Counted from the first letter of the whole stretch, positions 29,062 to 56,061 are shown. The stretch is DNA of 62,246 nucleotides, filler included, from Dimargaris cristalligena (GCA_003614675.1; 4 parts of 4 records of this genome joined end to end with filler, not necessarily neighbours in it); one strand, 5' to 3'. Notes: a model not told the origin generated them from the letters alone. Numbers and translations: made by a program.

Positions 29062-29099
29062 TTGTTGAATAATACCATGAGGTTGTACAGAAGGGGGTA

Positions 29100-31127: not shown

Positions 31128-31227
31128 NNNNNNNNNNNNNNNNNNNNNNNNNNNNNNNNNNNNNNNNNNNNTTAATTAATTAANNNNNNNNNNNNNNNNN
31201 NNNNNNNNNNNNNNNNNNNNNNNNNNN
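31128..31227. other. Artificial contig spacer
   Basis: 44 N + TTAATTAATTAA + 44 N. Confidence 0.98.
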
Positions 31228-31305
31228 AGATCCTGGCGGATTGCGTTTCGAGGTGACTCACAAGACCAGATGCGACGCGGCTAAATATATCTTATTGTTG
31301 TCAAT

Positions 31306-31357
31306 TAGAAAATACAAGTTGATGAAAATCCTAGAAAATACAAGTTGATGAAAATCC
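31306..31357. repeat. Perfect 26-bp tandem duplication upstream of the structural gene
   Basis: TAGAAAATACAAGTTGATGAAAATCC x2. Confidence 0.9.
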
Positions 31358-31395
31358 AAAATGTTAGAAAACACGTATAAACATGAAAGAACTTG

Positions 31396-33678
31396 ATGAT
31401 GCAAGAGACGAACATAATGGCGGAATATGTTGCACATACAGAAAAACAAGTTAGATCGAGACTTACAAACACAAGGGGTGGTGACGCCATGGCTTCATCT
31501 GCCGATATTCTCTTTGAAAACGAGTTCGTTGGAGACACATACAAAGAAGTTCCCGAAGATAAACAAAATGCATACAAGAAATTTTTCACAGCGAAGGAAG
31601 AAAAAATGAAAAAATCCGCTCAAATTTCTGCGGTGCAAGCATTGAATGTAAAACCAGCAGCGACAAACACAGCGCTGATGGACAGAAAAGATGTATATAG
31701 ATCTAAAGTTTCCGGGGTACCTCTCCAGTTCAACCAAGGTCCGTTGGATCCGGTTGTTGAAAAAGCAAATCTTGTAGAAAAAAAGAGGAAAATATTTTTC
31801 GACTCTGGTGATAGGGATACGGACGCTTATCCAGATGCCTCAGATTTTGTGATTTCATGCGGCCGTATTTTTCATAATGTCAAAAGCATCAGGCTTGTCA
31901 GTCTTGAATTTCCCAATGTTGTAAAAGCTATCGACACATTGAAAAATAATCAACTCTACTGGATAAACATTGAAGACGATTCACTCGATCCACCTTATCC
32001 GGTTTATACAGCAACAGTGTCCCCCGGCTCCTATTCTCTGACAACACTTCAAACAGAATTGACAACAGAAATGGCCATTCCGTTCAGAAACGATGGTCAA
32101 GTTTACTCCGACGGAACCTTTCCAATTCATCATCTATTTGTGGTAACTGTCAATCTTGAAACAGACTATGTTGGTTTTACAAGCCTTGTAGCTCAACCTT
32201 GTGGCCAAAATCCGATTACAACAACGGGTGGATCCACACTTATTTCTTTGACGCAAAATAACCATGGATACGTAAATGGGCAATTGATTTACATCCTCGG
32301 CGTTGTAGGTATCCTCGGTGGTTTGCAAGCATCTGACATCAATGGATCTTTTAGTATAACAGTTATTGACGAAAATCGCTTTACATTTAACGTCCTTGTT
32401 GTTGCTACCACAACGGTTACTGGAGGAGGTACACTCGTCAAAACAGGTCGTGAAGCGCCCTTTCAATTTTTGTTCGGCCAGAATCTTTATCCTTTAGCTG
32501 ATATCATAGGGTTCCCCGTTGAGAATTCGTTCGTTACGATTGGACAAACTGATCCGATAACAGCAAATACCAAAACAATCACAGAAATCATACCAGGCGA
32601 AAACGAAACAAGCATTATTTGTCCTGACCATCGCATATTACCTGGCGACAAAGTGAATTTAGTAAACGTGAATGTCACACCAAGCATATATCAAAACGAG
32701 AAATACAACAGAATATTTACGGTTTATTCAGTTCCAAGTCCAGATGTTTTCACCATAAGATACGGAACACAACACGTTTCCGACATTTCGACCGCCTTTG
32801 TCGGAACACAAACGTTTCAAATGTATTATCCTGGACATGGATTCAACCGAATTGTAGATATCACTCAAATAGGTCCAAATTTGGTCCAAATCACCACATT
32901 GTTCCCTCATGGCTTTACATCAACATCCACTGTGCTCCTAAAACAAACCAATTCCGTCCCAAATGTCGACGGGTTTTACAAGGTTATTTTGATGCCAAAC
33001 AGTCTGGACACTTTCGCTATTCAAAGCTCAAATTTGAGTCACCCTTTGTCTATTGTGACCCCAGGATTTTCTGGTATCTTGAGTTCGGATCAAATATTTT
33101 ACCTTACAAACGTAACTTCCCTTGGTGGTTTTACAACATCAGATCTAAACAATGTGCCGTTTACTGTTCGCGACATAATTGATGAAAATAATTTTACATT
33201 TTCGGGAATTTATGGATTATCTCAATTTGCAGAAACAGGAGGAGGTTCCGGCATTCGAATCAACTCCAAAATTCATGGTTGGAGGGGTACCCAAAGCAAC
33301 AATGATACTGGTTCTTTGTACAAACCAGTAAGAATGTCTGGAGATAATTACGCATTCATGTGTTGTCCTGGACTGAATTCTGATTCGATTAGCAATAGCG
33401 GACCGGTTGAGAATATTTTAGCAAAGATATTTGTCAGTGTGATTCCTGGATATGTTATATTTAATGATTTTGATGGTTCACCAATCGATTTCGCATTGCC
33501 GATTTCAACTCTAAAAGACTTTCATTTTCAGATAAAAGCAAAGGATAATAGCTCTGTTCTTTTCAACGGCTTGGACTATTCCTTTGGGATAGAATTGATT
33601 GAGTTGATTCAAAGTACACAAGACATGTCAATGAATCAAACATCCAGGATAATGCCACCTGGTTCATCCAAAAAATAA
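31396..33678 (+). CDS. NCLDV virion structural protein, penton/DUF5901-like fold with inserted beta-rich repeats
   Basis: N-part IFFDSGDRDTDAYPDASDF...FHNVKSIRLVSLEFPN and C-part FALPISTLKDFHFQI...FNGLDYSFGIEL match a motif pair common in giant-virus proteins; internal HG-x-x-x-G...NG...TF beta repeats. Confidence 0.65.
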   Translation: MMQETNIMAEYVAHTEKQVRSRLTNTRGGDAMASSADILFENEFVGDTYKEVPEDKQNAYKKFFTAKEEKMKKSAQISAVQALNVKPAATNTALMDRKDVYRSKVSGVPLQFNQGPLDPVVEKANLVEKKRKIFFDSGDRDTDAYPDASDFVISCGRIFHNVKSIRLVSLEFPNVVKAIDTLKNNQLYWINIEDDSLDPPYPVYTATVSPGSYSLTTLQTELTTEMAIPFRNDGQVYSDGTFPIHHLFVVTVNLETDYVGFTSLVAQPCGQNPITTTGGSTLISLTQNNHGYVNGQLIYILGVVGILGGLQASDINGSFSITVIDENRFTFNVLVVATTTVTGGGTLVKTGREAPFQFLFGQNLYPLADIIGFPVENSFVTIGQTDPITANTKTITEIIPGENETSIICPDHRILPGDKVNLVNVNVTPSIYQNEKYNRIFTVYSVPSPDVFTIRYGTQHVSDISTAFVGTQTFQMYYPGHGFNRIVDITQIGPNLVQITTLFPHGFTSTSTVLLKQTNSVPNVDGFYKVILMPNSLDTFAIQSSNLSHPLSIVTPGFSGILSSDQIFYLTNVTSLGGFTTSDLNNVPFTVRDIIDENNFTFSGIYGLSQFAETGGGSGIRINSKIHGWRGTQSNNDTGSLYKPVRMSGDNYAFMCCPGLNSDSISNSGPVENILAKIFVSVIPGYVIFNDFDGSPIDFALPISTLKDFHFQIKAKDNSSVLFNGLDYSFGIELIELIQSTQDMSMNQTSRIMPPGSSKK

Positions 33679-33744
33679 AGGTCAAAAGCATTGATACTTT
33701 TTTTACACCAATTTTGCAATGTAAAATCAAAATACCAGACAATT

Positions 33745-34110
33745 TTCAAAATTTATCGATAAATGTTGAAATCACAAATGCTTGCAAAAGTTAGAATCGT
33801 CGCAAGAAATCTTCAAACTTTATCGATAAATAAATTCCAAAAGTATATTTTCTTCACAAAATTTGAAAGTAATGTCAAACAATAGTGAACTTTTACCGAT
33901 AAATAAATTTCGCAACAAAACTTATTGACAAAACTTAATATTCCAATTTGTTGACAATTCATTTATCGATAAATAAAAACGATCTTTTTGCAAAAATTTT
34001 GAAACAAATCCAGACAATGACCAATCTTGAAGCGACCACAAACCCTATCGATAAATAAATGTTGGAATTGCATCTATTTGTCGCCATCAAACAAACCGTA
34101 TCGATAAATA
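33745..34110. repeat. Array of regularly spaced TTTATCGATAAA(TAAA) palindromes between convergent genes
   Basis: Cores at 33755, 33822, 33895 (ACCGAT variant), 33965, 34047 and 34100. Confidence 0.85.
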
Positions 34111-35015
34111 AAAATAACCATAACAGCAATCATCACAAGGCAAATGATACACAGACATGTACAATGGAAAAGCAGTTTAAGTTTATCATTTCGAACTGCA
34201 TTATAATGTTGAATCAGTAAATCAAACAATCTCATATTCGGTTTCTTTTTTCGCCATAATAAAAAGGCTGGGAAATATCCAAAGTTTGGTCCGTTGAAAT
34301 GTAGAATACAAGGAAATGTGCCTGTCCGTTTGTTTTTGAAAACATGTTTCGATGATTCATTTTGATCCAGATCACCGAGAACACCTGCCATGCACATAAA
34401 CACAGATGCTTCGGTGTCTAATTTTACAGTCTTCCATCCTTTGTGGTCAATTTCATTGCGATGTTCCAAATATATTGTTGTATGATAACGTTGATCATCT
34501 TCCGATATGTCAAACTTGTGCGTTTTCAATAGTTTGAGCAAAACCGATCCATAAAAGATGAACGTACCCGAATTCAAGAAAGGATACGTTCCAGAAATTT
34601 TTCCCTTAATTTTATACTCGTTCGCACGATTGGGGTCGGGGTGGCAAAAATTTTCTGCAGAGTAAAGAACATGGGTTTTCATTTCCAAAAAATTGTTGTA
34701 GATATCTTTCAAGGATTTTAACATGAGAACGTCAAATGCGTCCGTGAAAAGAACAACTGCTTTCGGATCATGTCGATTGACATATTCACAAAAGTTTAGA
34801 ACATGGTGCATTTTTACTCCAAAATTTTGCCCCCAACGCTGAAGTCGCCCGTCGTCTTGGCCGAGTATTATCAACTCGACTCCAAAATGTTTGACAGTTT
34901 CTTGCAAGCGCGGAAGGTTTTCGTGCGTTTTTGTCGCAACTGTTATGTAATAAACAGGTGTTGCATCATGCATGATTGAACGTTTCTGCATCCATTCCGT
35001 GTGAACTTTTTCCAT
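34074..35015 (-). CDS. PLOD/procollagen-type glycosyltransferase domain protein with C-terminal transmembrane helix, 313 aa
   Basis: ITVAT, VLFTDAFDVL (DxxD), LYSAENFCHP, PFLNSGTFI, DDQRYHT, LDTEASVF and ILHFNG follow the PLOD N-terminal GT motif order. Confidence 0.85.
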   Translation of the reverse strand: MEKVHTEWMQKRSIMHDATPVYYITVATKTHENLPRLQETVKHFGVELIILGQDDGRLQRWGQNFGVKMHHVLNFCEYVNRHDPKAVVLFTDAFDVLMLKSLKDIYNNFLEMKTHVLYSAENFCHPDPNRANEYKIKGKISGTYPFLNSGTFIFYGSVLLKLLKTHKFDISEDDQRYHTTIYLEHRNEIDHKGWKTVKLDTEASVFMCMAGVLGDLDQNESSKHVFKNKRTGTFPCILHFNGPNFGYFPAFLLWRKKKPNMRLFDLLIQHYNAVRNDKLKLLFHCTCLCIICLVMIAVMVIFIYRYGLFDGDK

Positions 35016-35148
35016 CGTCTTTGAATACTAATACTAACTGACAAATTCTTATTTGACAAGACATTGCTTTATGATCAGACGCGCGTTCAATGACTGAAAG
35101 TTTAAAATTTATATAAAGAAATACATCTGTTTTTGGAGTATAGACAAC

Positions 35149-36171
35149 ATGGTTGCAGGAAGACGCTCAAAAAAGTTAGTGGATTGCGATGATGTGTATG
35201 AATCACCTATCGGTATTTCTCAACATCAATTAGAAAATGAAACGCAACCACTCAAATCCAGCGCTGGCGTAAACAATTTCGTAGAATATGTCCCGGATGA
35301 AAATTACCTGTTAGAAGTCAGAACTACGTCTGGAAATATTTTCAAAAACCTTCTAGACACTCTGAAGGCAGTATTGAATGACGCCAACATTATATTCAGT
35401 CCTGCAGGATTGAAATTGGCAGCTGTCGACTCAAAAAATAACGCATTTGTTCATTTGGTGATGGAAGCAGAAAAATTTGCATTTTTTCACTGCAAATCCG
35501 CCCAGCTGGTTCTCGGCATCGATATTAATGTGCTTCAGAAAACGATCAAAACAAACAAGGCGAACGATCTTCTGTGCTTTGTAGTAAGAAAAGATGATCC
35601 CAGTCATTTAGAAATAACATTTCACAATATTCAAAAAGGGGAAAGAATTACAGACAAAATCGCACTGTTGACTCTGAAAGAATCAATTATAAAGGATGAG
35701 ATTCGTATGAATCTTGGGTTGAAAATATCCAGCCAAAGTTTTCAAAACATTTGTCGCGAAATGGTCTCCTTTGAAGCAACCAAGATTCAGATCGAAAGCA
35801 CAGCAAATGAGTTGGTGTTCACAAACAAACTTGATGGATCCAATGCCCCGAACGGATTTACCACTCGTCGAGTTGTCATATCTATCGATAACACCGGTGA
35901 CAACGATCAGTCGAATATTGAATATCAACCTGCAAAAGGAGTTTTTGATTTAAAATTTCTCAAATCATTTGCAAAAGCCGCAAATCTAAGTCCCGATGTC
36001 ATCGTATACTTGACCAACTATTCACCCATAATTTGCGAGTACTCTATTTCGGGTTTGGGAACCCTCCGATATCTTTTATCTCGGGAAGAAGGATATGATG
36101 ACTACGATGACGAATATGATGAAGACGACGGGGAATCATGCGATCAGCATGATGATTATGAAGACAAGTAA
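35149..36171 (+). CDS. PCNA: Proliferating cell nuclear antigen (viral-type sliding clamp), 340 aa
   Basis: LEVRTTSGNIFKNLLDTLKAVLNDANIIF...AVDSKNNAFVHLVM...FQNICREM...GVFDLKFLKSFAKAANLSPDV...PIICEYSISGLGTLRYLL; intronless; acidic tail. Confidence 0.92.
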   Translation: MVAGRRSKKLVDCDDVYESPIGISQHQLENETQPLKSSAGVNNFVEYVPDENYLLEVRTTSGNIFKNLLDTLKAVLNDANIIFSPAGLKLAAVDSKNNAFVHLVMEAEKFAFFHCKSAQLVLGIDINVLQKTIKTNKANDLLCFVVRKDDPSHLEITFHNIQKGERITDKIALLTLKESIIKDEIRMNLGLKISSQSFQNICREMVSFEATKIQIESTANELVFTNKLDGSNAPNGFTTRRVVISIDNTGDNDQSNIEYQPAKGVFDLKFLKSFAKAANLSPDVIVYLTNYSPIICEYSISGLGTLRYLLSREEGYDDYDDEYDEDDGESCDQHDDYEDK

Positions 36172-36320
36172 TTCTTTTTCCTTTCATGTGTCTTTCGTCT
36201 CAATATGATAATACTGTTTAATCGAAAATAGTAAATATTATAAAAAATCGCGTAAACATTTCAAAATAAACTTAAAAATACATGTTAATACAATCTAGGA
36301 TAAAGCAAAATCTGTGAATA

Positions 36321-36734
36321 ATGGACGTGTCTTGGAAAACAATAAAAAAAGGTTACAAACGCGTTTTGCAAACTGCTTTTGCAACGGAATCAAAACGCGA
36401 AGAAGCACACACTACATTATTATTATTTTTGTGTTCCGTAAGCGATCTATATCTCAGTGGGGATGTCCAAGTAAAAAGCGCTCTGGCACATTTGGGACTT
36501 GATGACTTTCCTTTATCAGATGCACCAGAAGATAATTCGTCAAATGACGAAAACGAAACATTACAGCATACTGGATTTAACATTCAAAGTATCCATTCGA
36601 ACATGCTTCCTGCGGAAATGTTGCGACTGTTTCCGTTTTCAGCGTATCTCAATGCAAACAACAACGCACGCAATAACGCAACGGACAGCACTAACGACAA
36701 TCCAAATCTTTCGAGAAATGACTCACAATCTTAA
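36321..36734 (+). CDS. Hypothetical viral protein, 137 aa
   Basis: ATG-started ORF filling the gap in a gene-dense contig; no recognisable motif. Confidence 0.6.
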   Translation: MDVSWKTIKKGYKRVLQTAFATESKREEAHTTLLLFLCSVSDLYLSGDVQVKSALAHLGLDDFPLSDAPEDNSSNDENETLQHTGFNIQSIHSNMLPAEMLRLFPFSAYLNANNNARNNATDSTNDNPNLSRNDSQS

Positions 36735-37073
36735 TAGATCGCTTACTTGCTGAAACGGTTTTTTATCTATCATCTCTATTAATTTTCTTTCCGTTGGTTC
36801 TTTCAATGTGCTTATTTGAAAAAAATCTATCACATTGACTATTGAAAGAACCTCATCACATGACATTTCGTTCAAACTGTCCAAATCATCAAACAATTTG
36901 AACAAATTATCCAAGACAACCTTTGAAATGTTAAAGTAAAATTTTTCCTTTGAACAGCCCAGATCATTGATCATGTCGCAAAATAAATTGACACCTTTTG
37001 AAAAAATTATTTCTTTTGAAAAGAAAAACTCAAAGTCGTCCAAACTGATAACGAAAATTCCAGTTTGTGTCAT
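36723..37073 (-). CDS. Skp1/BTB-like protein, 116 aa
   Basis: FVISLDDFEF...LFCDMINDLG...NISKVVLDNL...VLSIVNVIDFFQISTL...LIEMIDKKPFQQVSDLL parallels the Skp1 POZ and dimerisation motifs. Confidence 0.6.
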   Translation of the reverse strand: MTQTGIFVISLDDFEFFFSKEIIFSKGVNLFCDMINDLGCSKEKFYFNISKVVLDNLFKLFDDLDSLNEMSCDEVLSIVNVIDFFQISTLKEPTERKLIEMIDKKPFQQVSDLLRL

Positions 37074-37313
37074 TGTTTAACGTTTTTTCGCAACTTTCCA
37101 TAAATATGAATTCGTTATTGGTAGACGCTCGATTGATGGTTCAGTATATATTGAAATATCCTTTTTACGTTATTTTCTATATTTTCGTTTCGAAACTTCA
37201 AACAACTTTGATATTTCCAGAATATTTCGGATTGAACATTGTCCAGAAATGGATTTTCACACTATTTATGATTCTCGTCATTGCCTTTATCGATAAAACG
37301 TATCTAATCGTAT

Positions 37314-38264
37314 CTAATCGTATCTATCTTTAAATTTTTCGTGTATTCCTTCTAAAAGCCGCTTCTTTGCAGTGTCATAAGGTCTGATCACTTTTAGACA
37401 TTGATCAAATGTAAACCAACCCACGTTGAAAATTTCACCACCGTCGCGAATGATTTCGATTTTATCTCGAGGCAAGACGTTTTTGCCCGAAATCTCCGCA
37501 ATGTAGTAAATGTGACGATATTGAATACCATTGGTTCCCACAAAAAGTTCCTCGCGTGGATTGTCTGTGATTATTTTGACGTCATGGTGATTATAACCAG
37601 TCTCTTCACGAAATTCTCGTTTGGCGCAGTCAATATTAGATTCGTACATGTTCTTTCTACCTTTTGGAAATCCATACTCTTGTTCTGTCCACCTACATGT
37701 GGTTTTCGAAAGAAGATCTTTGATATCAAGCTTCATAAATCTTTTTTCAGCATTTTCATATTCATTAATATACAATTTGCTGCTGTGATTACTCCATAGA
37801 CCGAACCACATGTCATAAAAAGATTCCTTTGATAAACGCATTCGTTCTTCGCATGTCATTTCTTCCAGGTAAATTTTCAAAACTTTGAACTTTTCATTGC
37901 CAGAATCTGGGTATTTGCCTCTGAGAAGATCAATGTATCCCATGGTGTCTTTACGTTGGACCATCAGGTAAAGAATTTTCGCATCTTCCGTGGGAAGAGG
38001 AATCGCATCAGGGCTTGAATTTTCATGAATCGGGCATTTCTTCCTGCTTACATTTTCCACCGGTCCCAAATTTACATAGTCACGAGCCGTAATTACCACC
38101 AAGCCAAAACTCGTTGTTGGTTCTGAACATTCTTTCCAAATATGACCCTCCTGTCCACAATTTACGCAGCAAAATCTTTTCCGTTTTCTTTCAGGAAATC
38201 CCCCACGATTTATTCGATTCTTTAAATTTCGGTGATTTTTTAGTTCGTCCATCAAAAAGTTCAA
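37314..38264 (-). CDS. Nudix hydrolase, NCLDV mRNA-decapping enzyme type, with N-terminal CCHC zinc knuckle, 316 aa
   Basis: CVNCGQEGHIWKEC, TSFG, YLMVQRKDTMGYIDLLRGKY, Nudix box GFPKGRKNMYESNIDCAKREFREETG, ELFVGTNGIQYRHIYYIA. Confidence 0.9.
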   Translation of the reverse strand: MNFLMDELKNHRNLKNRINRGGFPERKRKRFCCVNCGQEGHIWKECSEPTTSFGLVVITARDYVNLGPVENVSRKKCPIHENSSPDAIPLPTEDAKILYLMVQRKDTMGYIDLLRGKYPDSGNEKFKVLKIYLEEMTCEERMRLSKESFYDMWFGLWSNHSSKLYINEYENAEKRFMKLDIKDLLSKTTCRWTEQEYGFPKGRKNMYESNIDCAKREFREETGYNHHDVKIITDNPREELFVGTNGIQYRHIYYIAEISGKNVLPRDKIEIIRDGGEIFNVGWFTFDQCLKVIRPYDTAKKRLLEGIHEKFKDRYD

Positions 38265-38378
38265 ACCTCAAAGTAGATGAATCCATGTTATTGACAGCGC
38301 AGAAAGTTTGTTTTGATGCGTTCTTCGCATTTACACGAAATATTGTCAAATGTATATAAAGTCGATATATAAAGTCGA

Positions 38379-39356
38379 ATGACTTTTATGACAAATAAGT
38401 TATTTCTAATGTTTTCCAATTTTACCACCATCAAATCAAGAGACTCTTCCAGTTTGGAACTGACTTTGGAAAAAAACAAAAAACTTTTTGATATTCGTCA
38501 GAGGTCCAACGAAATTTGGATTCAGACCAACCGAGTCAATGTAATATATGGTTATTCTGCAAGTATTTTTAAACCAGGCCAGGGTTCTCTTGTTGTCAAG
38601 ATAGATGATGATCTTCGTAAAACTGTAGAAAAAGTCGACACACTCGTATTTGACGAGATAATTCGAATTCATGCTGGTAGTATCGTCGAAAATGTCAAAA
38701 TTACTCCAAATGCTGTCAAAGCCATGTATAGGACAAGCTTAAAACAAGACAAGTTGAAATTAAACTGTTCAAGTTTGAATTGTGCTTTTTTTTCCAAAGA
38801 TAATATTCTGTTGGAAAATGTCGTGTTGGAAACTCTTCTCCCTAAAAACTCTATAATAAGTCTTATTATTCAACCCGCTTTCGTTTGGATGATGGACGGC
38901 AAAATCGGCATCCGATGGGAAGCCCGACAAATTAGGATACACGAGCAAATAAACAACGAAGAAATCATCGATCGAACACTGCCGGACACTAAACAACAGA
39001 ATTATCAAAAAGGGTCTGATTCGCATCTAAATTCAACAAAAATTGGGAAGAACTACGAAGATTCAAACACTCAAATCAATCATCTTTTCAAACACAAGGC
39101 AAATGTCAATCCAAACAAGAGATTATTGTTTCCTGATGATGATGATTATGCAAAAAACAGTGAAGTTATCGATAAAAATACCACGAATCTTTCCCGCCGA
39201 TTATTGTTTCCGGATAATGATGATGAACCTTCGAATACAAAAAATATTGAATTTATCGATAAAGTTACCACGAATCTTTCACGCCGATTATTGTTTCCGG
39301 ATGATGATGAACCTTCGAATGCAAAAAATATTGAATTTATCGATAAAGTTTGCTGA
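38379..39356 (+). CDS. Putative viral single-stranded DNA-binding protein (OB-fold, DUF2738-like) with repetitive acidic tail, 325 aa
   Basis: IWIQT, VEKVDTLVFD and IIQPAFVWMMDGKIGIRWEARQIRI resemble NCLDV SSB motifs; acidic C-terminus. Confidence 0.6.
   Translation: MTFMTNKLFLMFSNFTTIKSRDSSSLELTLEKNKKLFDIRQRSNEIWIQTNRVNVIYGYSASIFKPGQGSLVVKIDDDLRKTVEKVDTLVFDEIIRIHAGSIVENVKITPNAVKAMYRTSLKQDKLKLNCSSLNCAFFSKDNILLENVVLETLLPKNSIISLIIQPAFVWMMDGKIGIRWEARQIRIHEQINNEEIIDRTLPDTKQQNYQKGSDSHLNSTKIGKNYEDSNTQINHLFKHKANVNPNKRLLFPDDDDYAKNSEVIDKNTTNLSRRLLFPDNDDEPSNTKNIEFIDKVTTNLSRRLLFPDDDEPSNAKNIEFIDKVC
39110..39351 (+). repeat. Three tandem ~70-87 bp coding repeats (xRLLFPDDD...IDK), each ending in the ATCGATAAA palindrome
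   Basis: Units 39181-39267 and 39268-39351 are near identical; a more diverged unit precedes them. Confidence 0.9.
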
Positions 39357-39385
39357 TGATGACGATGAAATTCAATAATTCCCGA

Positions 39386-39802
39386 TCACGATTCTCGACA
39401 ACCAAATCTTACTAACACCACTTGTTGGCCGAGTAAATTGGTTTTTTCTTGATGTTTTTTAGTGTTGCACGGTTTGTCATCGTCATGTCTACTCAAAAGG
39501 TTTATCATAAAAAATGTCCCGCGCATTCTATTCTTGTGTTTGACATAGCACAACCTCCCGTACAATCCTTGCAAGTAATCATTTAAACAACGTCCATCAA
39601 TGCCTTTCAATACCATCAATTCCAACACGAGTTTCACAAGTGACTTTACTTTCTGTTTTGCATTTGACTTTTGCCTTATTATATCGTTTTTGGCGGACGA
39701 TCGGGCATATTTCATGTTTTCTGAACATGTCCAAATATTACCAACTAAAAATATTTGTGATGGTCTTGCAAGTTCACAACAACAGTTTAGCGTGGGGATC
39801 AT
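39386..39802 (-). CDS. Hypothetical viral protein, 138 aa
   Basis: ATG-started ORF filling the space between neighbours; no motif recognised. Confidence 0.45.
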   Translation of the reverse strand: MIPTLNCCCELARPSQIFLVGNIWTCSENMKYARSSAKNDIIRQKSNAKQKVKSLVKLVLELMVLKGIDGRCLNDYLQGLYGRLCYVKHKNRMRGTFFMINLLSRHDDDKPCNTKKHQEKTNLLGQQVVLVRFGCRES

Positions 39803-39967
39803 GGGTTTTAATGTTAAATGTCAACATGTACTATGAACATGTATTATGAACATGTTAACATTTATATAAATATTTAGTGCAAAATTTATTGATGTATTTC
39901 GTATAAAACAGCAACAAAAAATATTAGATAATAGATAATCGATAATCGATAATCGATAATCGATTTT

Positions 39968-40624
39968 TCATTCGCTCAAATTTGACATAAGTTGATACTG
40001 CATATCGATCGGTTCAGTTAAAGGCAGAGTAATCTTTTGAGCTTCGTCTCGTTCTAGATCTGTGTAAAGATCAGACAGAAAAGTATCTCGCTCTTGACGC
40101 AATTCCTCTGTTCGCTTCTTAATAAGAGCTTCGAGTTGTTGTATCTTGAACCAAACTGCTGCAGCATGTTGCCGTTTGTTCTCAGATGCGCTGGCCAAGG
40201 CAGCTTTTCCTTCCTGTGTTTTCGCATACTCCAGATCTTTGGCATGTTTTTCTTTGATTTCTCGGAATTCCTTATCCCAGTTTTTGTCCATCTCTGCTTG
40301 CTTGTTTCGGTGAGATTGAATCAATCCAGTCAATTGACTGTTTGCATATTCGACATTCGACACTTCAAATGGGTTGAACACCCATGGAGACCACTTTCCA
40401 ACTGTACCTACAAAAATGTCAAAATCCGGGTCTAACGCTTGATAAGCCATGGATAGTTTTCTTCCTTCCTCTTCAGTTTCGCAAACGTCATGGATTTTGA
40501 AACCATAGGTATCGTGTTTTTGTCTGCTTTCCGGGCTAATCATACTTGCCAAAAAGTATTTTTTCCCTGGAAGAGGCGGATTGTCATGAAGTATAGCCAC
40601 CTTTGTGCTTTTGATGTCTGACAT
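39968..40624 (-). CDS. Conserved NCLDV protein, DUF5832-like (start taken at MSDIK; upstream in-frame codon at 40675)
   Basis: DNPPLPGKKYFLASMISPE...GFKIHDVCETEEEG...LDPDFDIFVGTVGKWSPW...VEYANSQLTGLI. Confidence 0.75.
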   Translation of the reverse strand: MSDIKSTKVAILHDNPPLPGKKYFLASMISPESRQKHDTYGFKIHDVCETEEEGRKLSMAYQALDPDFDIFVGTVGKWSPWVFNPFEVSNVEYANSQLTGLIQSHRNKQAEMDKNWDKEFREIKEKHAKDLEYAKTQEGKAALASASENKRQHAAAVWFKIQQLEALIKKRTEELRQERDTFLSDLYTDLERDEAQKITLPLTEPIDMQYQLMSNLSE

Positions 40625-40742
40625 TTGACTATTTTTACTTTGGTATTTCAAAAAACAATTAGAAAAAAAACGCACCGCATGAAAACGTCAACATTCGTCT
40701 CACGGATGCAAATTTTTAAATTTCCAATGATAAACGACAATA

Positions 40743-42101
40743 ATGAGTGGATTAAATGGGATCAAAGTGGAAACGGGTCAAGACAAAGTGGTCAACACCA
40801 TCCCCGCCTTGCGTGTTAACATGAACAACGTGGAATTGGCCTCTAATCAAACAGCACCAAAATCACGAATTGAGATCCCCGAAAGAAATAAACCAACAGA
40901 AAATACCGATTCTGATTCTGGGGAAGATTTCAAATTTTTAGAAAATGGGAAAAAATCAAAGATTGTACCACTTGCCGAAAAAGACAACAACTTGGACAGC
41001 GAATCAGAGAGGAGCAATCGTTCAGCAAGATCTAAAAACTCACAATCTTTTCCAAATGCTCAAGATAATTATACGCCTCGTTACAATTCCCGAGCATCTG
41101 ATGATGGAAAAAATGGAGAGCACCGATCATTCTCGTCTCCAACACCAAATAATGATGATTTAAAGGAAATTTCATTTGATTCTTCTCGTTCATTTCAAAG
41201 AAAAATAACTGCCACGTTGACACCAAACGAACTAAGGAAGCAAAAGACTAATTACCTTTACCAATACGAAAAACACAACAAAGATTTCAAGTATTTCAAT
41301 AGAAAATACACCATTCATGATGATGTTGATGAAATTCGGGACGCTGTGGAAAATGTCAAACGGAAGAAACAAACAGAAGAAGTAATAGAATTTTGGAAGA
41401 AAATGATGATGTTACTAGTTGCGTGCATTACAATGTTGAACTCTACCTTTAATCCCATGGACATCGATTTAGAAACATGGAAAACAAATATGAATTACGA
41501 TTTGAACATTGGTAAATATGACGATCCATTCGAAGCACTAGTCGACAAATACAGCGGCAATTCCGCTTACGGACCCGAATTAAGAATTCTCGGTTTGATG
41601 GGGATGAACCTTGTTATTACAGTCATGGCTCAAAGAGAAAACAAAAATAAACTAGCTGATATTGCTTTGGAAAAAGAGAAAATGAAGAGAGAAATGCGAG
41701 AAGAAATTTACAGAGAAAACGCCGCACTATACGCTGCGAACCGAGCGAAACAAGAACCACTTAACGATCGACCTGTTTACATTCCTGCGTCCGCACCCAG
41801 AACTCAGGTGCCAATCCCATCACAACAAATGAAGGGTCCATCTGACTTTGATGAAATGCAGCAACAGCTGGCAGACGTCAATTCGGATTGCAATAGTTCC
41901 GAATTCCCCGGTGACCAGGAAAGTATGATGAGTTTACGTTCTGAACATGCCCCGAAAATCGAAATACGCGATACTGTTGACGAGATGACCCTAGAAAAAA
42001 CAATTCTGACCATTGAACCGAAAAAAATCAAAGAACCCAAACGAAGAGGTCGCCCTCCAAAGAGCGTTTTTCAAAACGATGTAAAAGTAATTAGCGTCTA
42101 A
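40743..42101 (+). CDS. Conserved NCLDV protein, DUF5767-like, 452 aa
   Basis: KQKTNYLYQY...IEFWKKMMM...LNSTFNPMDIDLETW...YDDPFEALVDKY...GPELRILGLMG...QMKGPSD. Confidence 0.75.
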   Translation: MSGLNGIKVETGQDKVVNTIPALRVNMNNVELASNQTAPKSRIEIPERNKPTENTDSDSGEDFKFLENGKKSKIVPLAEKDNNLDSESERSNRSARSKNSQSFPNAQDNYTPRYNSRASDDGKNGEHRSFSSPTPNNDDLKEISFDSSRSFQRKITATLTPNELRKQKTNYLYQYEKHNKDFKYFNRKYTIHDDVDEIRDAVENVKRKKQTEEVIEFWKKMMMLLVACITMLNSTFNPMDIDLETWKTNMNYDLNIGKYDDPFEALVDKYSGNSAYGPELRILGLMGMNLVITVMAQRENKNKLADIALEKEKMKREMREEIYRENAALYAANRAKQEPLNDRPVYIPASAPRTQVPIPSQQMKGPSDFDEMQQQLADVNSDCNSSEFPGDQESMMSLRSEHAPKIEIRDTVDEMTLEKTILTIEPKKIKEPKRRGRPPKSVFQNDVKVISV

Positions 42102-42126
42102 CAAACATTTATCGATAAAATGTTTC

Positions 42127-42426
42127 TCATTTCGGATGCGAGACTGTCGACTGGGTAACGGCAATATGCGTTGGGGGTTTGTGGCACCCCGGATACAATG
42201 ACATAAAATATTGTAAAATCAGGAAAAACAAAGTCATTGCCACAGCGTGTTGGAAATTTTCTGTCGATTGGTACATTATGCAAAATAACGTAAATGTCTT
42301 GATAATTGAAGTGTCCAACAAACTCCCACACAATAGCTGAATGTCATTGCCAACATATCTCGTTGCGAAGTATGACATGTAAGAAATTAGGCATTTAAAA
42401 GATTTGTGTGCAATCGTGGAATCCAT
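42127..42426 (-). CDS. Small viral membrane protein, 99 aa
   Basis: FATRYV...IIKTFTLFCIMYQSTENFQHAVAMTLFFLILQY resembles a small multi-TM family seen in giant-virus core clusters. Confidence 0.55.
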   Translation of the reverse strand: MDSTIAHKSFKCLISYMSYFATRYVGNDIQLLCGSLLDTSIIKTFTLFCIMYQSTENFQHAVAMTLFFLILQYFMSLYPGCHKPPTHIAVTQSTVSHPK

Positions 42427-42574
42427 TGTTCAACTGTTTTAGTCGTGTTTATCATATCCATCCGTAAAAAAACAACCTCGTTTCTGTTTAATGGCTGTTT
42501 TTACATGGCACCCGTCCATTCGTCGAATAGGTTTGTAAAATTTAGAATCTATATAATAGAAGCAGACATAATTG

Positions 42575-42829
42575 ATGAATGAAGCGAAAGATCTCGGAAC
42601 AGATGAAAACGACCACATTACTGCTCTTAAGACGTGTAAAGATGTAATTCAACATGTCCATGTTTGCAACAATTGTCAAAGACGACTATCGTTTGATCCA
42701 ATTGAGAAGGCTCTTTTAAAAACTCATTCAGTCAAAAACGAAATCATCGAACTCGTTGCATTTTTGGCAATGGGTTCATTTATTATATTTTTTCTTCATT
42801 TTATGGTTAAGTTCAAAAGTGTAAACTAA
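42575..42829 (+). CDS. Small viral protein with C-x5-H-x3-C-x2-C motif and C-terminal TM helix
   Basis: CKDVIQHVHVCNNC followed by IIELVAFLAMGSFIIFFLHFMV. Confidence 0.65.
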   Translation: MNEAKDLGTDENDHITALKTCKDVIQHVHVCNNCQRRLSFDPIEKALLKTHSVKNEIIELVAFLAMGSFIIFFLHFMVKFKSVN

Positions 42830-42859
42830 CGATACATTACAAGAACAGAGTGATTTTGT

Positions 42860-43366
42860 TTACGAACATTTGTGAATATTTTTCAAATGTGCATATCTGG
42901 GATTTTTGCGCATAATTTGGCTCCTCAGGTTAACATTGCTCAATCCAGAATCTGGGTTATAATAGTACTCATCTATTTTCGAACTTTTTTCTTTCATTTT
43001 TGGTTGAGCAAATTCGATCCCAAGTTCTTCCTTTAGTTTGCGTTGTTTTTCGTTCCATTTTTTTGTTTTGGAAACGTCCGCAGCACTCCAAGAGATGTAG
43101 AGTGTATTCTCATCATTTTTTCGCTTTACATAAAACTCTTTCTTTCGCAAGGCTGCTTTGAGATACTCCATGCATTCTGTAAAATTATAGTTTGTCGTGT
43201 CTGGAATGCTTATTGGAACTTTAATAGTTGTGCATGTTTCGTGACAAATTTCATAAACCATACGTATTTCAGCCAAGGCTTTTTCCAATTGAATTTGATA
43301 TTTTTTATATCTGGACTCTGATTTTGCATGTTCCTCTTGAATAAGATCAGATGCTTTCAGAGTCAT
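42860..43366 (-). CDS. Conserved NCLDV protein, DUF5759-like, 168 aa
   Basis: YQIQLEKALAEIR...CTTIKVPISIPDTTNYNFTECMEYLKAALRKKEFYV...LYISW. Confidence 0.75.
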   Translation of the reverse strand: MTLKASDLIQEEHAKSESRYKKYQIQLEKALAEIRMVYEICHETCTTIKVPISIPDTTNYNFTECMEYLKAALRKKEFYVKRKNDENTLYISWSAADVSKTKKWNEKQRKLKEELGIEFAQPKMKEKSSKIDEYYYNPDSGLSNVNLRSQIMRKNPRYAHLKNIHKCS

Positions 43367-43529
43367 TTATTATTAAACATTGATTTTTTATTGTTTTACA
43401 ATAACACGTTTCTCAATAGCGGGAAACACTGAAATTTGTAGATAATCAATTTCTCAAAATGAGCTAAAGCGTTTCTCATAAAAACCACAGTCTCCATAAA
43501 CCTAGCTTTCGTCCGTCAGTCAGTCAGTC

Positions 43530-43999
43530 ATGTCGTCGGCAAGGTGCAACCAACCGTCGCAAAAAGCTCGCTCCCGCTACCGTCAGCTCCCTGCCGTCAC
43601 GTCCTCGACAGCGCCTCAACAACCTGCTCAACTTCAACCCGCCCTCAATCCAAACTGGCCACTTAACATGCGCCCATACTTGGTCGGAGGCGGGCCCCAC
43701 GCTCACAAGGTAGACTGGCGCCGGGAGTTCCTGAAAAACCACCCGGAACTCGTCTCCCCTGAAGACCAGGAGGCGGCTTTCGCTGCATTCTGGAAGGGGT
43801 TGATTAAGCTCTACGAAACTGGTAAATGGGGTCGAGGAAACTTACGTCCGAGGCGGGGGAAGGGACCACCTGCCAACAAAACACTAATGTCCTGTTCGTT
43901 CGCCCCGTTTCAGATTGGTCCTGGCTGTCTTCTTTGTTCTCTTGGCTAACCTGCGGTTTTGTCCATCCCGGCGGTTCCAAGGATAAACAAGCTTGGTAA
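43530..43999 (+). CDS. Hypothetical GC-rich gene with probable spliceosomal intron; join(43530..43821,43914..43999), 125 aa
   Basis: GTAAAT donor at 43822, CTAAT branch, pyrimidine tract, CAG acceptor at 43913; the spliced frame ends TDWSWLSSLFSWLTCGFVHPGGSKDKQAW*. The unspliced alternative is 43530..43949. Confidence 0.45.
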
Positions 44000-44212
44000 G
44001 TAACGCGGGGGAGGGCGGGATGGACGACTCCATTTCTTCCCCAGATCTTTTAAATCCCGCGCTTTTCATGCTTCTCATGCTTTTTAGCTTACCATGGTAA
44101 CGTCTACATGCCTTACCGCGGTAACCGTCGCTTCCCTTAGATCTTTCTTTTTAGATTCGGAAAAAATCAATATTCGTGAATTAGTTCGAATAAATTCAAC
44201 AGTTAAACACCC

Positions 44213-44322
44213 TCGAATATTTTTCTTTCATTTTTGGTTGAGCAAATTCGATCCCAAGTTCTTCCTTTAATTTGTGTTGTTTTTCGTTCCATTTTTTTGT
44301 TTTGGAAAGGTCCGCAGCACTC
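44213..44322. repeat. Direct duplicate of an internal piece of the DUF5759-like gene (42979-43088)
   Basis: TTTTTCTTTCATTTTTGGTTGAGCAAATTCGATCCCAAGTTCTTCCTTTA...TCCGCAGCACTC is present twice with only a few substitutions. Confidence 0.92.
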
Positions 44323-45110
44323 ATAATCACAATCTCATTTATCGATAAATCATATTGCAAATTCATTCAACATTCTGCAATCACAACCATAATCACAATC
44401 TCATTTATCGATAAATCATATTGAATAATTTCTTTCTCAAATTCATTCAACATTCAAAAATCACAATCGCAATCATAATCACAATCTCATTTATCGATAA
44501 ATCATATTGCATAAGTTGTCAAATTCATTCAACTTTCTCAATCACAAACATAATCATAATCACAATTTGTTTTATCGATAAATCATATTGCATAAGTTGT
44601 CAAATTCATTCAACTTTCTACATTCACAATCATAATCACAATGACAATCATAATCACAATCTCATTTATCGATAAATCATATTGCATAATTTGTCAAATT
44701 CATTCAACCTTCTACATTCACAATCATAATCACAAAGACAATCATTATCATAATCACAATCTCATTTATCGATAAATCATAATGCATAATTCGTCAAATT
44801 CATTCAACATTCAACAATCACAATCATAATCCTAATCCTTGCAAATCCCAAATTCTTCCAACAATCATAACTACATCCACAAACGTATGGCAAATTCGTT
44901 TAACATTCACAATCACAATTTGAATCTCATTTATCGATAAAACATATTGCATAATTTGTCAAATACTTTCAACATTTTACGATTACAATCGCAATACCCG
45001 GTAGTAATTTATAGAAAGTCTTTGACAAATTTTGCCTTTGCATTACAAATTACATATTCTACTTTCACAATCGCAATCACAATCACAAATTAACAATCAT
45101 TTTGCGAACA
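44323..45110. repeat. Tandem array of 7 palindrome-containing units separated by variable CA(C/T)AAT runs
   Basis: Core CACAATCTCATTTATCGATAAATCATATTGCATAA-TTGTCAAATTCATTCAAC; ATCGAT at 44341, 44407, 44493, 44574, 44668, 44768, 44933. Confidence 0.93.
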
Positions 45111-45149
45111 TTCAATTTCTTCGTAATTCAACTTTCCGAACCTGGTTTG

Positions 45150-46133
45150 TTAAATTGACTTTCGTCTGGTAACATATCTGCTATTTGACAAACACTTATT
45201 CAAAACAACCTGTCTGTTTGATTTGTGGTGTATCCTGGCACTTTCATATCCTTTCATAAACAAACTTTTTTTTGTAATAAAATCAATATCGAGGTCAAAA
45301 CAATGACTTTCAGAGCATGTCAATGAAATTGTTAGAGATAAGCGATCATCTAAAATTCCTTTTTGAATTGAATCGATGAGACCTTCACTTTTTTTGATGG
45401 AACAAGAAAACAAATTGTATAGAAAGTTTTCGAAAGAACTTGTTTTTCGATTTGAAAGTGATCTAATGTCACATCCAATAACATAATCGCAAGGGTCCAG
45501 TTGTGGGTTTCTTAGCTTGAAATCTTTTATGCAATGCAGTATCGGATAATTATCCATTACACCACCATCAACGTAATGCTTTCTGTTATGTTGGACTGCG
45601 GAAAACAGAAAAGGGACAGATATTGATATTCGGATCGCATCAAGAACTCTCATATCGCCAAATTTTTCCGGACAAAAATAATCAATCTTGTGTGCGGAAA
45701 TGTCACATCCAGTGAAAATGAGCCTTTTTTTAAATTTTGACTCAAAATCTTTGAATGTTATCATGGGATTAACACCGTTTTCAACCATGATATCCACCAA
45801 ATGCGCAATGAAATATTCTCCTGAATCTATCCCAAAGGTCTCGAAAAACTTTGAAATATTGCTATATTTTAAAATACTTTTATCAAAAACGGACAATTTC
45901 TTGAAAATGTCATCACAAGACATACCGGTTGCAACACACATTGCAACCACTGTACCGATTGATGTCGCAACAAACGTATCAACGTTATTCATCATTTCTT
46001 TTTCCTCCAGATATTTCAGAGCTCCCAAATGCGCGAAACCCGTCGTTCCCCCACCTGACAAACACACACTTTTGTATGACATTTTCTTCATGATATAAAA
46101 TTTCAGAATCGCAATAATGTTTGAACGCACCAT
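45150..46133 (-). CDS. Patatin-like phospholipase (NCLDV type); true start may be at MKKMSYK
   Basis: LSGGGTTGFAHLGAL, ATSIG nucleophile elbow, FGIDSG, AIRISISVPFLF, YVDGGVMDNYP. Confidence 0.92.
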   Translation of the reverse strand: MVRSNIIAILKFYIMKKMSYKSVCLSGGGTTGFAHLGALKYLEEKEMMNNVDTFVATSIGTVVAMCVATGMSCDDIFKKLSVFDKSILKYSNISKFFETFGIDSGEYFIAHLVDIMVENGVNPMITFKDFESKFKKRLIFTGCDISAHKIDYFCPEKFGDMRVLDAIRISISVPFLFSAVQHNRKHYVDGGVMDNYPILHCIKDFKLRNPQLDPCDYVIGCDIRSLSNRKTSSFENFLYNLFSCSIKKSEGLIDSIQKGILDDRLSLTISLTCSESHCFDLDIDFITKKSLFMKGYESARIHHKSNRQVVLNKCLSNSRYVTRRKSI

Positions 46134-46140
46134 CCATATT

Positions 46141-46494
46141 TCATATTTTGTCTTTTGATTGGAAACAAATCTCTGGACATATCATGGAATCAAATGCCAA
46201 AATGTTCAAGTCAAAAGTATCGTCCATTACCATCGAGATTTCCAAAGACTCCTTCGGGTATAGATTACCATCCTTCACACTATAATATAAAATAACAGGC
46301 AAAATCTCGTACAGGTACAGAGGGTGACTTGTTTCTTTATCAATGTCCATCAAAGTGAGATTGTTGATAAGAATGCCAGATGGGTAAGTGACATGGAATA
46401 ACGAATTAGGTTTGCCACATAGTCGTGTTTCCAATACTTGTCTGTCACCATTGGTTCTCAAAGTCCAATAAACAAACTTTCCGTCTCCAGACAT
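46141..46494 (-). CDS. Hypothetical viral protein, 117 aa
   Basis: ATG-started ORF tightly packed upstream of the patatin gene. Confidence 0.6.
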   Translation of the reverse strand: MSGDGKFVYWTLRTNGDRQVLETRLCGKPNSLFHVTYPSGILINNLTLMDIDKETSHPLYLYEILPVILYYSVKDGNLYPKESLEISMVMDDTFDLNILAFDSMICPEICFQSKDKI

Positions 46495-46689
46495 TTTCGA
46501 TAATATTATATATGATACGTGTTCTGAATCAGCATGTTTATCGATAGAGACACTGTATTGAGCTGGCCGATTGTCCGTCGATATCTCGAACCATGGAACA
46601 GGTGATTGAAGCCATTGAAGATATGAGAGCGGTGACCAACGGTTTTGTAATCGAATTGACGAAATCGAATCTGATGGAGGAAAAATGAC

Positions 46690-46789
46690 NNNNNNNNNNN
46701 NNNNNNNNNNNNNNNNNNNNNNNNNNNNNNNNNTTAATTAATTAANNNNNNNNNNNNNNNNNNNNNNNNNNNNNNNNNNNNNNNNNNNN
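46690..46789. other. Artificial contig spacer
   Basis: 44 N + TTAATTAATTAA + 44 N. Confidence 0.98.

Positions 46790-56025: not shown

Positions 56026-56061
<36 letters not shown>

Follow-up and report, generated by a model that had tools for sequence, protein, structure and literature searches.

The window analysed here, a stretch of 62,246 nucleotides from the Dimargaris cristalligena assembly, is made of four separate contigs of ~15.5 kb each, joined by spacers. One of them, a whole contig of 15,462 bp (31228 to 46689, 36.8% GC), is a fragment of the genome of a Nucleocytoviricota member, a large DNA virus not described before. N runs on each side (31128 to 31227 and 46690 to 46789) bound it at exactly the coordinates that a first-pass annotation had given for a giant-virus contig. 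The abrupt switch to AT-rich, packed, intronless ORFs reported in that annotation is real as far as composition and ORFs are concerned, but it marks the border between two contigs, not a join inside one genome, because the contigs are separate and only linked by spacers.

Composition and gene content of the viral contig

We compared the viral contig with the rest of the window. Its GC content is 0.368, against 0.485, 0.502 and 0.491 in the other three contigs, and a tetranucleotide check within the window showed a contig consistent with itself (correlation of 0.90 between left and right parts) and apart from its neighbours (at most 0.36 with the five neighbour-contig segments tested). It carries 15 compact, intronless, AT-rich ORFs, with a coding share of 76% overall and 86% in the left 12 kb, and GC3 of the viral ORFs is 0.29-0.47 compared to 0.58-0.71 for D. 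cristalligena exons. Both compact, intron-free coding and a composition unlike that of the host are therefore present. The two ends are AT-rich, viral-type sequence, BLAST of the contig against the three host contigs of the window gave no similarity, and neither a D. cristalligena host junction or flank nor any sign of decay (stops, frameshifts, pseudogenes) was seen on it, all 15 ORFs being open.

Pfam searches recovered GT_PLOD, PCNA, NUDIX and patatin, together with DUF5832 and DUF5767 above their cut-offs and DUF5901 and DUF5759 below theirs. All the genes that had been named from the sequence alone (PCNA, a CCHC-knuckle Nudix, a patatin, a PLOD-type glycosyltransferase, DUF5832/5767/5759-like genes and, by fold, an SSB) are indeed there. 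The first ORF (31396 to 33678, plus strand) encodes a conserved giant-virus protein of 760 aa, DUF5901-type and possibly structural, whose DUF5901 score of 25.1 bits falls short of the curated cut-off of 26.4 bits. It has 45 homologues, at 30-58% identity when the fungal-assembly copies are left out, and aligns over 93-99% of its own length to most of them; its nearest Atlas clusters are 99-100% viruses, with Nucleocytoviricota the commonest. It is followed by a PLOD-type glycosyltransferase (34074 to 35015, minus strand; GT_PLOD, 1.2e-38), whose C-terminus is, from the translation, a hydrophobic stretch, and by a PCNA sliding clamp (35149 to 36171, plus strand; PCNA_N 1.7e-16, PCNA_C 2e-13), whose N-terminus is extended by ~50 aa and whose tail is acidic. 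The best non-self relatives of this PCNA reach 58% identity and 330 bits, while solved cellular PCNAs reach at most 114 bits and the yeast protein 45 bits; judged by these scores, the viral clamp is far from cellular PCNAs.

On the minus strand, 37314 to 38252 encodes a Nudix hydrolase (NUDIX, 1e-10) with an N-terminal CCHC zinc knuckle, the translation showing a knuckle of the form CX2CX4HX4C (CVNCGQEGHIWKEC) together with a full Nudix box. This protein is a candidate mRNA-decapping enzyme, a role proposed by analogy with the Nudix enzymes of poxviruses, ASFV and mimivirus. Two members of giant-virus families exceed their curated cut-offs, a DUF5832 protein (39968 to 40624, minus strand; 1e-11) and a DUF5767 protein (40743 to 42101, plus strand; 2e-17). 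The DUF5759-like protein (42860 to 43366, minus strand; 4.5e-4) falls short, with 20.4 bits against a curated cut-off of 25. A patatin-like phospholipase (45150 to 46133, minus strand; 2.4e-29) completes the set of recognised families.

Five ORFs could be assigned to no family. Pfam gave no match for those of 137 aa (36321 to 36734, plus strand), which also had no match in the 15 related loci examined below, 116 aa (36723 to 37073, minus strand), 99 aa (42127 to 42426, minus strand) and 117 aa (46141 to 46494, minus strand), and only noise-level matches for that of 138 aa (39386 to 39802, minus strand). One more small ORF, orf84 (84 aa, 42575 to 42829, plus strand), has a weak relative (tblastn, 4e-5) in three related loci, L010-L012, where it adjoins the homologue of the 760-aa protein.

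The ORF at 38379 to 39356 (plus strand) had no Pfam match of its own, nor any match in the PDB at sequence level; among its relatives (n = 56), DUF5871 was matched in 20 of the 48 aligned members. We therefore assigned it by fold. Its AF2 model (pLDDT 89) contains a DUF5871-type OB domain at residues 1-190, and Foldseek matched it to the phage Enc34 SSB (2.3e-6) and also to ASFV CP312R and T7 gp2.5, the ten best PDB matches (E 2e-6 to 2e-4) all being either SSBs of the gp2.5 type or phage proteins related to them. Among the best 50 viral structure matches in BFVD, 42 of 42 named rows were large DNA viruses. The model thus points to an OB fold of the gp2.5 type, and supports a predicted T7 gp2.5-like single-stranded-DNA-binding protein. 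The likeness to Enc34 (5odj), T7 (1je5) and ASFV CP312R (7yeq) lies in the OB domain (Foldseek E 2e-6 to 1e-4, TM 0.41-0.53), whereas sequence identity to them is just 9-14%. The tail of gp2.5 is acidic with aromatic residues, and so is the C-terminal part of this ORF; unlike in T7 gp2.5-type SSBs, however, the acidic motif is present three times, in an 87-bp coding repeat that gives three C-terminal repeats ending in LLFPDDD-type motifs. The contig hence carries a replication module made of the PCNA clamp and this predicted SSB.

A different type of sequence lies at 43500 to 44140 (plus strand), where composition and homologues define an island of ~60% GC holding a small gene apparently split by a GT..AG intron. 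With a GC of 0.59 and a GC3 of 0.65, against 0.29-0.47 in the viral ORFs, this gene stands apart from the rest of the contig and has the composition of a eukaryotic nuclear gene. It has two homologues in total, both proteins of the chytrid Blyttiomyces helicus. RKO94291, encoded on a 22,186-bp contig, has 1 difference in the first 97 residues, and both exons of its gene model are encoded in the island; the other, on a 15,146-bp contig, is 69% identical. Just right of the island, 44213 to 44322 is a 110-bp duplicate (95%, repeat family D7) of part of the DUF5759-like gene (42979 to 43088), a trace of rearrangement. Repeat analysis then delimited a non-coding tandem array with units of 66-165 bp (44312 to 45001), which includes seven copies of a 28-nt near-palindrome centred on TTTATCGATAAA. 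This 12-nt palindrome occurs 14 times, always in the viral contig, with 0.02 occurrences expected from shuffles, and has 0 copies in each of the 14 related loci with matches. Upstream of genes, AAAATTGA is the mimivirus-type early promoter, a feature of Imitervirales; here this word is not enriched, its single copy in the viral contig falling within a coding region, and the shorter AAATTGA stands at most 120 nt upstream of 1 of 15 genes.

Relatives among giant viruses

We examined the gene neighbourhoods of 15 related loci, 14 of which had matches. PCNA, DUF5767 and the 760-aa protein are found in the same order and within ~6 kb on six distinct GVMAG or metagenome contigs, and DUF5767 homologues adjoin PCNA and the 760-aa protein on nine distinct contigs (10 loci, two of them on one contig). 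In addition, three contigs (L010-L012) hold a distant patatin homologue together with DUF5767, orf84 and the 760-aa protein, and 11 contig sizes are common to the match lists of the 760-aa protein and PCNA. The nearest uncultured IMG/VR giant-virus contig, GVMAG-M-3300015360-128 (L006), is 47-52% identical to the viral contig, and the others that carry the gene cluster (L001, L005, L008, L009, L013 and L014) 25-38%. These contigs resemble ours in that homologues of PCNA, DUF5767 and the 760-aa protein lie near one another, but differ from it by a rearranged gene order. One distant relative, L001, further encodes a MutS-HNH protein, a type characteristic of Imitervirales.

Genes of giant-virus families are thus present, namely DUF5767 and DUF5832, and the Atlas and BFVD neighbours are giant viruses as well. 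Together with the Pfam families, the shared gene cluster and the Atlas clusters bear out the giant-virus call of the first-pass annotation. The same holds for its remark that the proteins are diverged, as the best non-self relatives of the contig proteins are only 47-58% identical, all of them from metagenomes or GVMAGs. Within the phylum, the virus may belong to the Imitervirales/Algavirales part or lie close to it, the fragment being one without a hallmark gene: MCP, PolB, the A32 ATPase, VLTF3 and the D5 primase-helicase had no Pfam match among the 15 ORFs of these 15 kb.

Origin of the viral DNA

The viral DNA occurs in nearly identical form in two assemblies and under three run labels, with extra copies in B. 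helicus. Protein names assign the window to the D. cristalligena assembly: its protein RKP35367, on a contig of the same length as the viral one (15,462 bp), is identical at 340 of 340 residues, and a 729-aa protein on the 22,186-bp contig of B. helicus is identical to the viral-contig protein at 729 of 729. Two recorded contigs carry the exact DUF5832 sequence, the longer being that of 22,186 bp, and the two assembled copies differ by one residue in the GC-island gene. The B. helicus assembly has, moreover, a second copy of three genes at 92-95% identity, with consecutive accessions on a 30,099-bp contig; ungapped, 206 of 218 residues agree for DUF5832 (RKO94577, 94% identical), 246 of 259 for PCNA and 612 of 667 for the 760-aa protein. 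At the level of reads, 0.79-0.98 of the sampled 31-mers of 34000 to 43400 were present in six runs from three studies of differing release years under three organism codes. One run among these six covers the window's host contig in 30 of 30 bins and also contains 0.97 of the viral words.

The first pass had taken the virus to be associated with the fungus, either endogenous, episomal or co-sequenced. The contig does stand in the D. cristalligena assembly, but near-identical DNA lies on a longer contig in the assembly of an unrelated chytrid, where a second variant is also found, and the link to D. cristalligena is therefore doubtful. The endogenous option is without support here, as neither a host flank nor any pseudogene is present on the contig. 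Overall, the viral contig is not demonstrably part of D. cristalligena.

We consider it probable (about 0.6) that the virus stems from the bog-water sample of B. helicus and was carried over into the D. cristalligena libraries. In this sample, handled in the same single-cell project as D. cristalligena, it might have been resident in the chytrid itself or have belonged to a protist sorted along with it, and its DNA would have passed into the other libraries at the sorting, amplification or sequencing stage. We infer both the direction of this transfer and its route; the direction is the most likely one given the second copy and the GC-island paralogue found in B. helicus only, the longer contig and the impure sample. 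The B. helicus sample was a spruce-pollen/bog-water enrichment with much non-target DNA, sorted without purification, and that of D. cristalligena an almost pure spore preparation from agar (PMC6784888, PMC8042348). Contaminant screens were directed at bacteria and mammals, not at viruses (PMC6784888, PMC8042348). Against carry-over stand the reported pooling of libraries by species and a MiSeq test that showed no crosstalk in the fungal pipeline (PMC6784888), as well as the one-residue difference between the assembled copies and the differing release years of the three studies.

It is unlikely that the sequence is a pipeline or reagent contaminant foreign to both fungi, such as a virus of protists living in water or sorter fluid, that entered the libraries of several projects independently. 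Its presence under three organism codes in three studies and the frequency of close relatives in environmental assemblies would fit such a source, but a single assembly, that of B. helicus, contains the two variants as well as the GC-island paralogue, and the island, with its apparent spliceosomal-type intron, resembles a nuclear gene of a GC-rich eukaryote.

Rather more doubtful is that the D. cristalligena culture is the true home of the virus, be it as an episome or provirus or by way of Cokeromyces recurvatus, the host grown with the fungus, and that the B. helicus assembly is the contaminated one. Besides the contig itself and the viral share of the host-covering run, a capsid-protein match in D. 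cristalligena (PMC13533422) speaks for it, and the GC3 of the island also fits D. cristalligena exons. Against this, the second diverged copy and the island paralogue occur only in B. helicus, whose contig is the longer, lists of 45, 46 and 2 matches contained no other protein under a D. cristalligena name, the contig is free of host junction and decay, and the fungus came from an almost pure agar culture. We likewise regard as very unlikely a giant virus really living in D. cristalligena, a walled, non-zoosporic mycoparasite, with the same virus in the chytrid. That fungi so distantly related are all infected by, or carry, one and the same virus is highly improbable: near-identical sequence does stand under three organism labels and in two named assemblies, but the named hosts, a chytrid from bog water and a mycoparasite grown on agar, have neither phylum nor habitat nor culture in common, and all come from one sequencing pipeline. 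Finally, old endogenous elements inherited or acquired separately by each fungus, although known for giant viruses in early-diverging fungi (PMC7017919, PMC13533422), can be set aside because of the near-identity across assemblies and labels (proteins of 340 and 729 residues 100% identical, 96-98% of 31-mers shared across labels), to which the open ORFs, a 760-aa protein near full-length against most relatives and the absence of host flank can be added.

Giant viruses of fungi

Giant viruses of fungi have been established only recently, and the view of the first pass that they are barely characterised is outdated, since a family of giant viruses from zoosporic fungi, the Mycodnaviridae, is now on record and the D. 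cristalligena capsid match is in print (PMC13533422). According to that source, fungal giant viruses are confined to zoosporic fungi with one exception, this very match, the ground for listing Zoopagomycota as the third phylum of hosts; B. helicus is not named in its main text. Our contig resembles the Mycodnaviridae described there in being a gene-dense giant-virus contig in the assembly of an early-diverging fungus, with a GC unlike the host, and in carrying PCNA, one of the genes they have in common. A host assembly with two related viruses, as may be the case in B. helicus, is also reported for them, and a chytrid source of the contig would fit their host range (PMC13533422). Unlike them, it is filed under a non-zoosporic fungus and has no marker gene, integrase or host junction. 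With the endogenous giant-virus elements of fungi it shares viral genes in a fungal assembly, but those are backed by long host contigs, stop codons and frameshifts (PMC7017919), none of which is found at 31228 to 46689.

As the viral DNA in D. cristalligena is nearly identical to that in the B. helicus assembly, the Zoopagomycota exception may be an artefact, and the published capsid match, the sole non-zoosporic fungal case, warrants re-checking. The mining of single-cell eukaryote assemblies for viral elements calls for a check on sequence common to assemblies. The conserved gene set and the TTTATCGATAAA palindrome could aid recovery of the remaining viral genome, and B. helicus, an uncultured bog chytrid, may carry two related strains of a virus not yet described. 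If D. cristalligena and the chytrid did share the virus, it would be a fungal giant virus whose host range spans phyla, and the first for Zoopagomycota; otherwise, the host range of giant viruses in fungi may be purely zoosporic.

A giant-virus contig beside three fungal contigs

Six runs of N in three pairs cut the window into 1-15518, 15619-31127, 31228-46689 and 46790-62246, that is, contigs A to D of near-equal size (15,518, 15,509, 15,462 and 15,457 bp), each spacer consisting of two 44-N runs with a 12-base piece between them. The first-pass annotation described an abrupt switch to AT-rich DNA at contig C (ML002887.1, 31228-46689; hereafter the viral contig). Results showed that the change in composition is real; since the N runs bound contigs, its place is the boundary of unrelated contigs and no junction within a chromosome. 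The apparent feature switches at 15.5, 31.2 and 46.7 kb are all assembly boundaries. GC content is 36.8% over the 15,462 bp of the viral contig and 48.5-50.2% in the other three, and tetranucleotide correlation between the two halves of the viral contig (r = 0.90) compares with at most 0.36 against five segments of neighbouring contigs.

The three other contigs resemble the ordinary nuclear DNA of a fungus, with exons encoding a protein kinase, a MATE-type transporter, an acyl-CoA dehydrogenase and long low-complexity proteins. At the end of contig B, a 5S rRNA gene (30589-30707) lies within an AT-rich host repeat (29061-31127), parts of which recur with 77-94% identity at the starts of contig D (46908-47580) and contig A (2-64). 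The depth of words from this repeat in the sequencing run X2 is 8,000-159,000, versus 47.5 for most of the remaining contig (bins 4-142), and its tetranucleotide correlation with the viral contig is 0.29-0.30. The 5S-linked repeat is therefore of very high copy number and non-viral.

The description of the viral contig as AT-rich, tightly packed and intronless held up: it carries 15 ORFs, introns are not apparent, coding sequence makes up 76% of the contig and 86% of its left 12 kb, and GC3 of the ORFs is 0.29-0.47 versus 0.58-0.71 in host exons. Every gene named in the first annotation is also present. Pfam matches were obtained for GT_PLOD, PCNA, NUDIX, patatin, DUF5832 and DUF5767, matches to DUF5901 and DUF5759 fell under the curated cut-offs, the translated Nudix ORF shows a complete Nudix box as well as a CCHC knuckle, and a candidate single-stranded-DNA-binding protein (SSB) was recognised by its fold. 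No tRNA genes were found. Two intergenic repeats were also observed, a (GATAATC)x5.4 tandem repeat with four ATCGAT cores directly downstream of the DUF5832 gene (39927-39964) and a perfect 26-bp duplication (31306-31357) located 40-90 nt upstream of the gene encoding a DUF5901-type protein of 760 aa (31396..33678, +).

The call of a giant virus was borne out. First, the 760-aa protein has 45 homologues, which show 30-58% identity when copies in fungal assemblies are set aside, and the Atlas clusters closest to it are 99-100% viral, Nucleocytoviricota being the commonest assignment. Second, the viral-contig PCNA has 46 matches, the best non-self one at 58% identity and 330 bits, and is distant from cellular PCNAs, none of those with solved structures exceeding 114 bits and yeast PCNA reaching 45 bits. 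Third, the genes are clustered in GVMAG and other metagenome contigs. Eleven identical contig sizes recur between the match lists of the 760-aa protein and PCNA, which suggests linkage between them in numerous uncultured genomes. We compared 15 related loci; a metagenome scan with one protein provided four loci at 35-37% identity (relatives of the 760-aa protein at 50-58% identity lie outside the compared loci), and an alignment-based scan of viral contigs provided ten. Six distinct contigs among the 15 loci share one gene order of PCNA, DUF5767 and a homologue of the 760-aa protein over a stretch of about 6 kb, and three further ones carry patatin, DUF5767, orf84 (42575..42829, + on the viral contig) and a homologue of the 760-aa protein.

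The nearest locus, GVMAG-M-3300015360-128, shares 47% identity in the 760-aa protein and 52% in PCNA, and no hallmark gene was found in its gene content. A distant relative, locus L001, encodes MutS (domains III and V) fused to an HNH nuclease at 317-2419, adjoining an AAA ATPase, PCNA and DUF5767; MutS with an HNH domain is typical of Imitervirales. As the mimivirus promoter word AAAATTGA is not enriched in the viral contig and no marker gene was found on this fragment, its placement stays at Nucleocytoviricota, near Imitervirales/Algavirales.

A near-identical viral sequence in two fungal assemblies

Three entries make up the 90% cluster of the 760-aa protein. The D. cristalligena entry RKP35367, from a 15,462-bp contig, is a mis-spliced model of the same gene (340/340 residues identical). 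The second, 729 aa in length and matching at 729/729 residues, comes from a contig of 22,186 bp, and the third is RKO94580 of the chytrid Blyttiomyces helicus (612/667 identical) on a contig of 30,099 bp. The contig of the 729-aa protein is taken to be that of B. helicus RKO94291, as both are 22,186 bp long and carry genes near-identical to ours. The 30,099-bp contig also encodes DUF5832 (206/218) and PCNA (246/259), with accessions adjacent to that of the 760-aa variant; no fewer than three of its genes (proteins P0001, P0101 and P0158) have collinear, gap-free counterparts on the viral contig at 92-95% protein identity. A near-identical copy on 22,186 bp and a diverged one on 30,099 bp indicate that the B. 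helicus assembly contains the viral sequence together with a second collinear version, 5-8% diverged, corresponding either to two strains of related virus or to two integrated copies that have diverged. According to the source paper, B. helicus was inferred to be non-haploid (PMC6784888). A single copy was seen in D. cristalligena.

The viral contig also contains an island of about 60% GC (43500-44140), whose ORF has a GC3 of 0.65. Only two homologues of this ORF were found among 5.8 billion proteins, both from B. helicus, and no usable match was found in the Atlas. The first is RKO94291, differing by 1 residue in the first 97, and the second, a paralogue at 69%, lies on a contig of 15,146 bp. 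Because the window also encodes the second exon of the model of RKO94291, a GT..AG intron of 266 nt (43822-44087) is implied, which is intact in the window. A nuclear-type intron is unusual within otherwise intron-free viral DNA. A rearrangement is marked directly to the right of the island, where 110 bp of the neighbouring DUF5759-like gene are duplicated. The island has the look of a GC-rich eukaryotic genome fragment within viral DNA, and its known kin occur only in the B. helicus assembly.

Sequencing runs were compared by 31-mers. Six runs, from three studies and under three organism codes, contain a 0.79-0.98 share of the 31-mers sampled from 34000-43400, which at this word length means near-identity, and no RNA run was listed with the viral words; the share of viral words is 0.00 in runs X7-X10, a low share being no proof of absence. 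Four runs were compared with host contig B (15619-31127). Contigs of X2 cover 30/30 bins in pieces of up to 7.7 kb with 0-3 differences; the host of the window therefore goes with one organism code and the viral stretch with three. X1, X7 and X3 gave only scraps of 18-108 nt, where missing cover proves nothing and carries no weight here.

Origin of the virus

The association of this virus with D. cristalligena, proposed at first, is not established and probably wrong, given that the same sequence and a second version of it are present in the B. helicus assembly and that the viral stretch occurs under three organism codes. Our search of the literature returned no report of a B. helicus virus or of sequence common to these two assemblies. 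The most economical reading, to which we give a probability of about 0.6, is that the virus came from the B. helicus sample, where it may reside in the chytrid itself or in a co-sorted protist, and was then carried over into the D. cristalligena libraries. That sample had been enriched on spruce pollen in bog water, and B. helicus was chosen for containing DNA of many non-target species (PMC6784888). The contigs were screened by tetramer PCA and with databases of bacteria, mouse, human, cat and dog (PMC6784888). A second paper describes the B. helicus sample as heterogeneous, sorted directly and unpurified, and the D. cristalligena sample as almost pure (PMC8042348). A survey of 2,543 genomes found capsid genes confined to zoosporic fungi, bar one match in D. 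cristalligena, and counted Zoopagomycota as a host phylum (PMC13533422); neither "contamina" nor "Blyttiomyces" occurs in its main text. Against carry-over, the source paper took precautions against crosstalk, which had been met in the bacterial pipeline of the centre and was absent in a test of the fungal pipeline (PMC6784888), and a one-residue difference separates the two assembled copies.

That the virus is a contaminant belonging to neither sample is rather improbable, and a true association with D. cristalligena appears less probable again. A real virus of multiple hosts is very unlikely. Separate old insertions in each fungus are excluded by the near-identity of the copies.

A candidate SSB, a repeated palindrome and proposed gene functions

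The ORF at 38379-39356, named SSB at first, has no Pfam match of its own, so its fold was used as a test. Its N-terminal 214 residues have 56 relatives, of which 47 were aligned and nine left out (match deep inside a longer protein, or partial domain cover); DUF5871 was matched by 20 of the 48 aligned members. Sequence and profile searches against the PDB gave no match, and the single-sequence fold was uninformative (pLDDT 35). The alignment-based structure model reached a pLDDT of 89, and the solved structures that it matches best are SSBs, from phage Enc34, ASFV (CP312R) and T7 (gp2.5). Among the 50 best rows against viral structures, all 42 named ones are from large DNA viruses. The 3' end of the gene contains an 87-bp coding repeat (2.8 copies, 39121-39350) encoding repeated "...NIEFIDKVTTNLSRRLLFPDDD..." units.

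The window has 14 copies of the 12-nt palindrome TTTATCGATAAA (33752-44941) versus 0.02 expected, all of them in the viral contig, and the 8-nt core TATCGATA of the palindrome has 19 copies there and none in the three host contigs. Six genes have TTTATCGATAAA 7-115 nt past the stop codon and a seventh has it at the 3' end, most of these sites falling between convergent genes; a further seven copies form a non-coding array. FIDK codons in the SSB repeat spell the palindrome, placing 2 of the 14 copies within coding sequence. The 12-mer was found in none of 14 related loci with matches, and a 14-nt palindrome in IMG/VR gave, among the matches listed (80 loci), isolated chance sites only and no array. 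Predicted RNA hairpins at 7 sites are weak, at -0.5 to -8 kcal/mol, with z < -2 at one. A stable hairpin terminator is thus unsupported, and our guess favours a candidate site for a dimeric protein, which might mark transcript ends or serve in replication.

The 760-aa, DUF5767, DUF5832 and DUF5759-type proteins, all conserved in giant viruses, have no assigned role. Judging from their families, PCNA and the gp2.5-like SSB would act in genome replication. The tail of gp2.5 contacts the polymerase and, by analogy, the three acidic LLFPDDD-type repeats of the SSB may do the same. The knuckle-Nudix enzyme would remove mRNA caps, and the patatin lipase and PLOD-type glycosyltransferase would act on membranes and virion glycoproteins.
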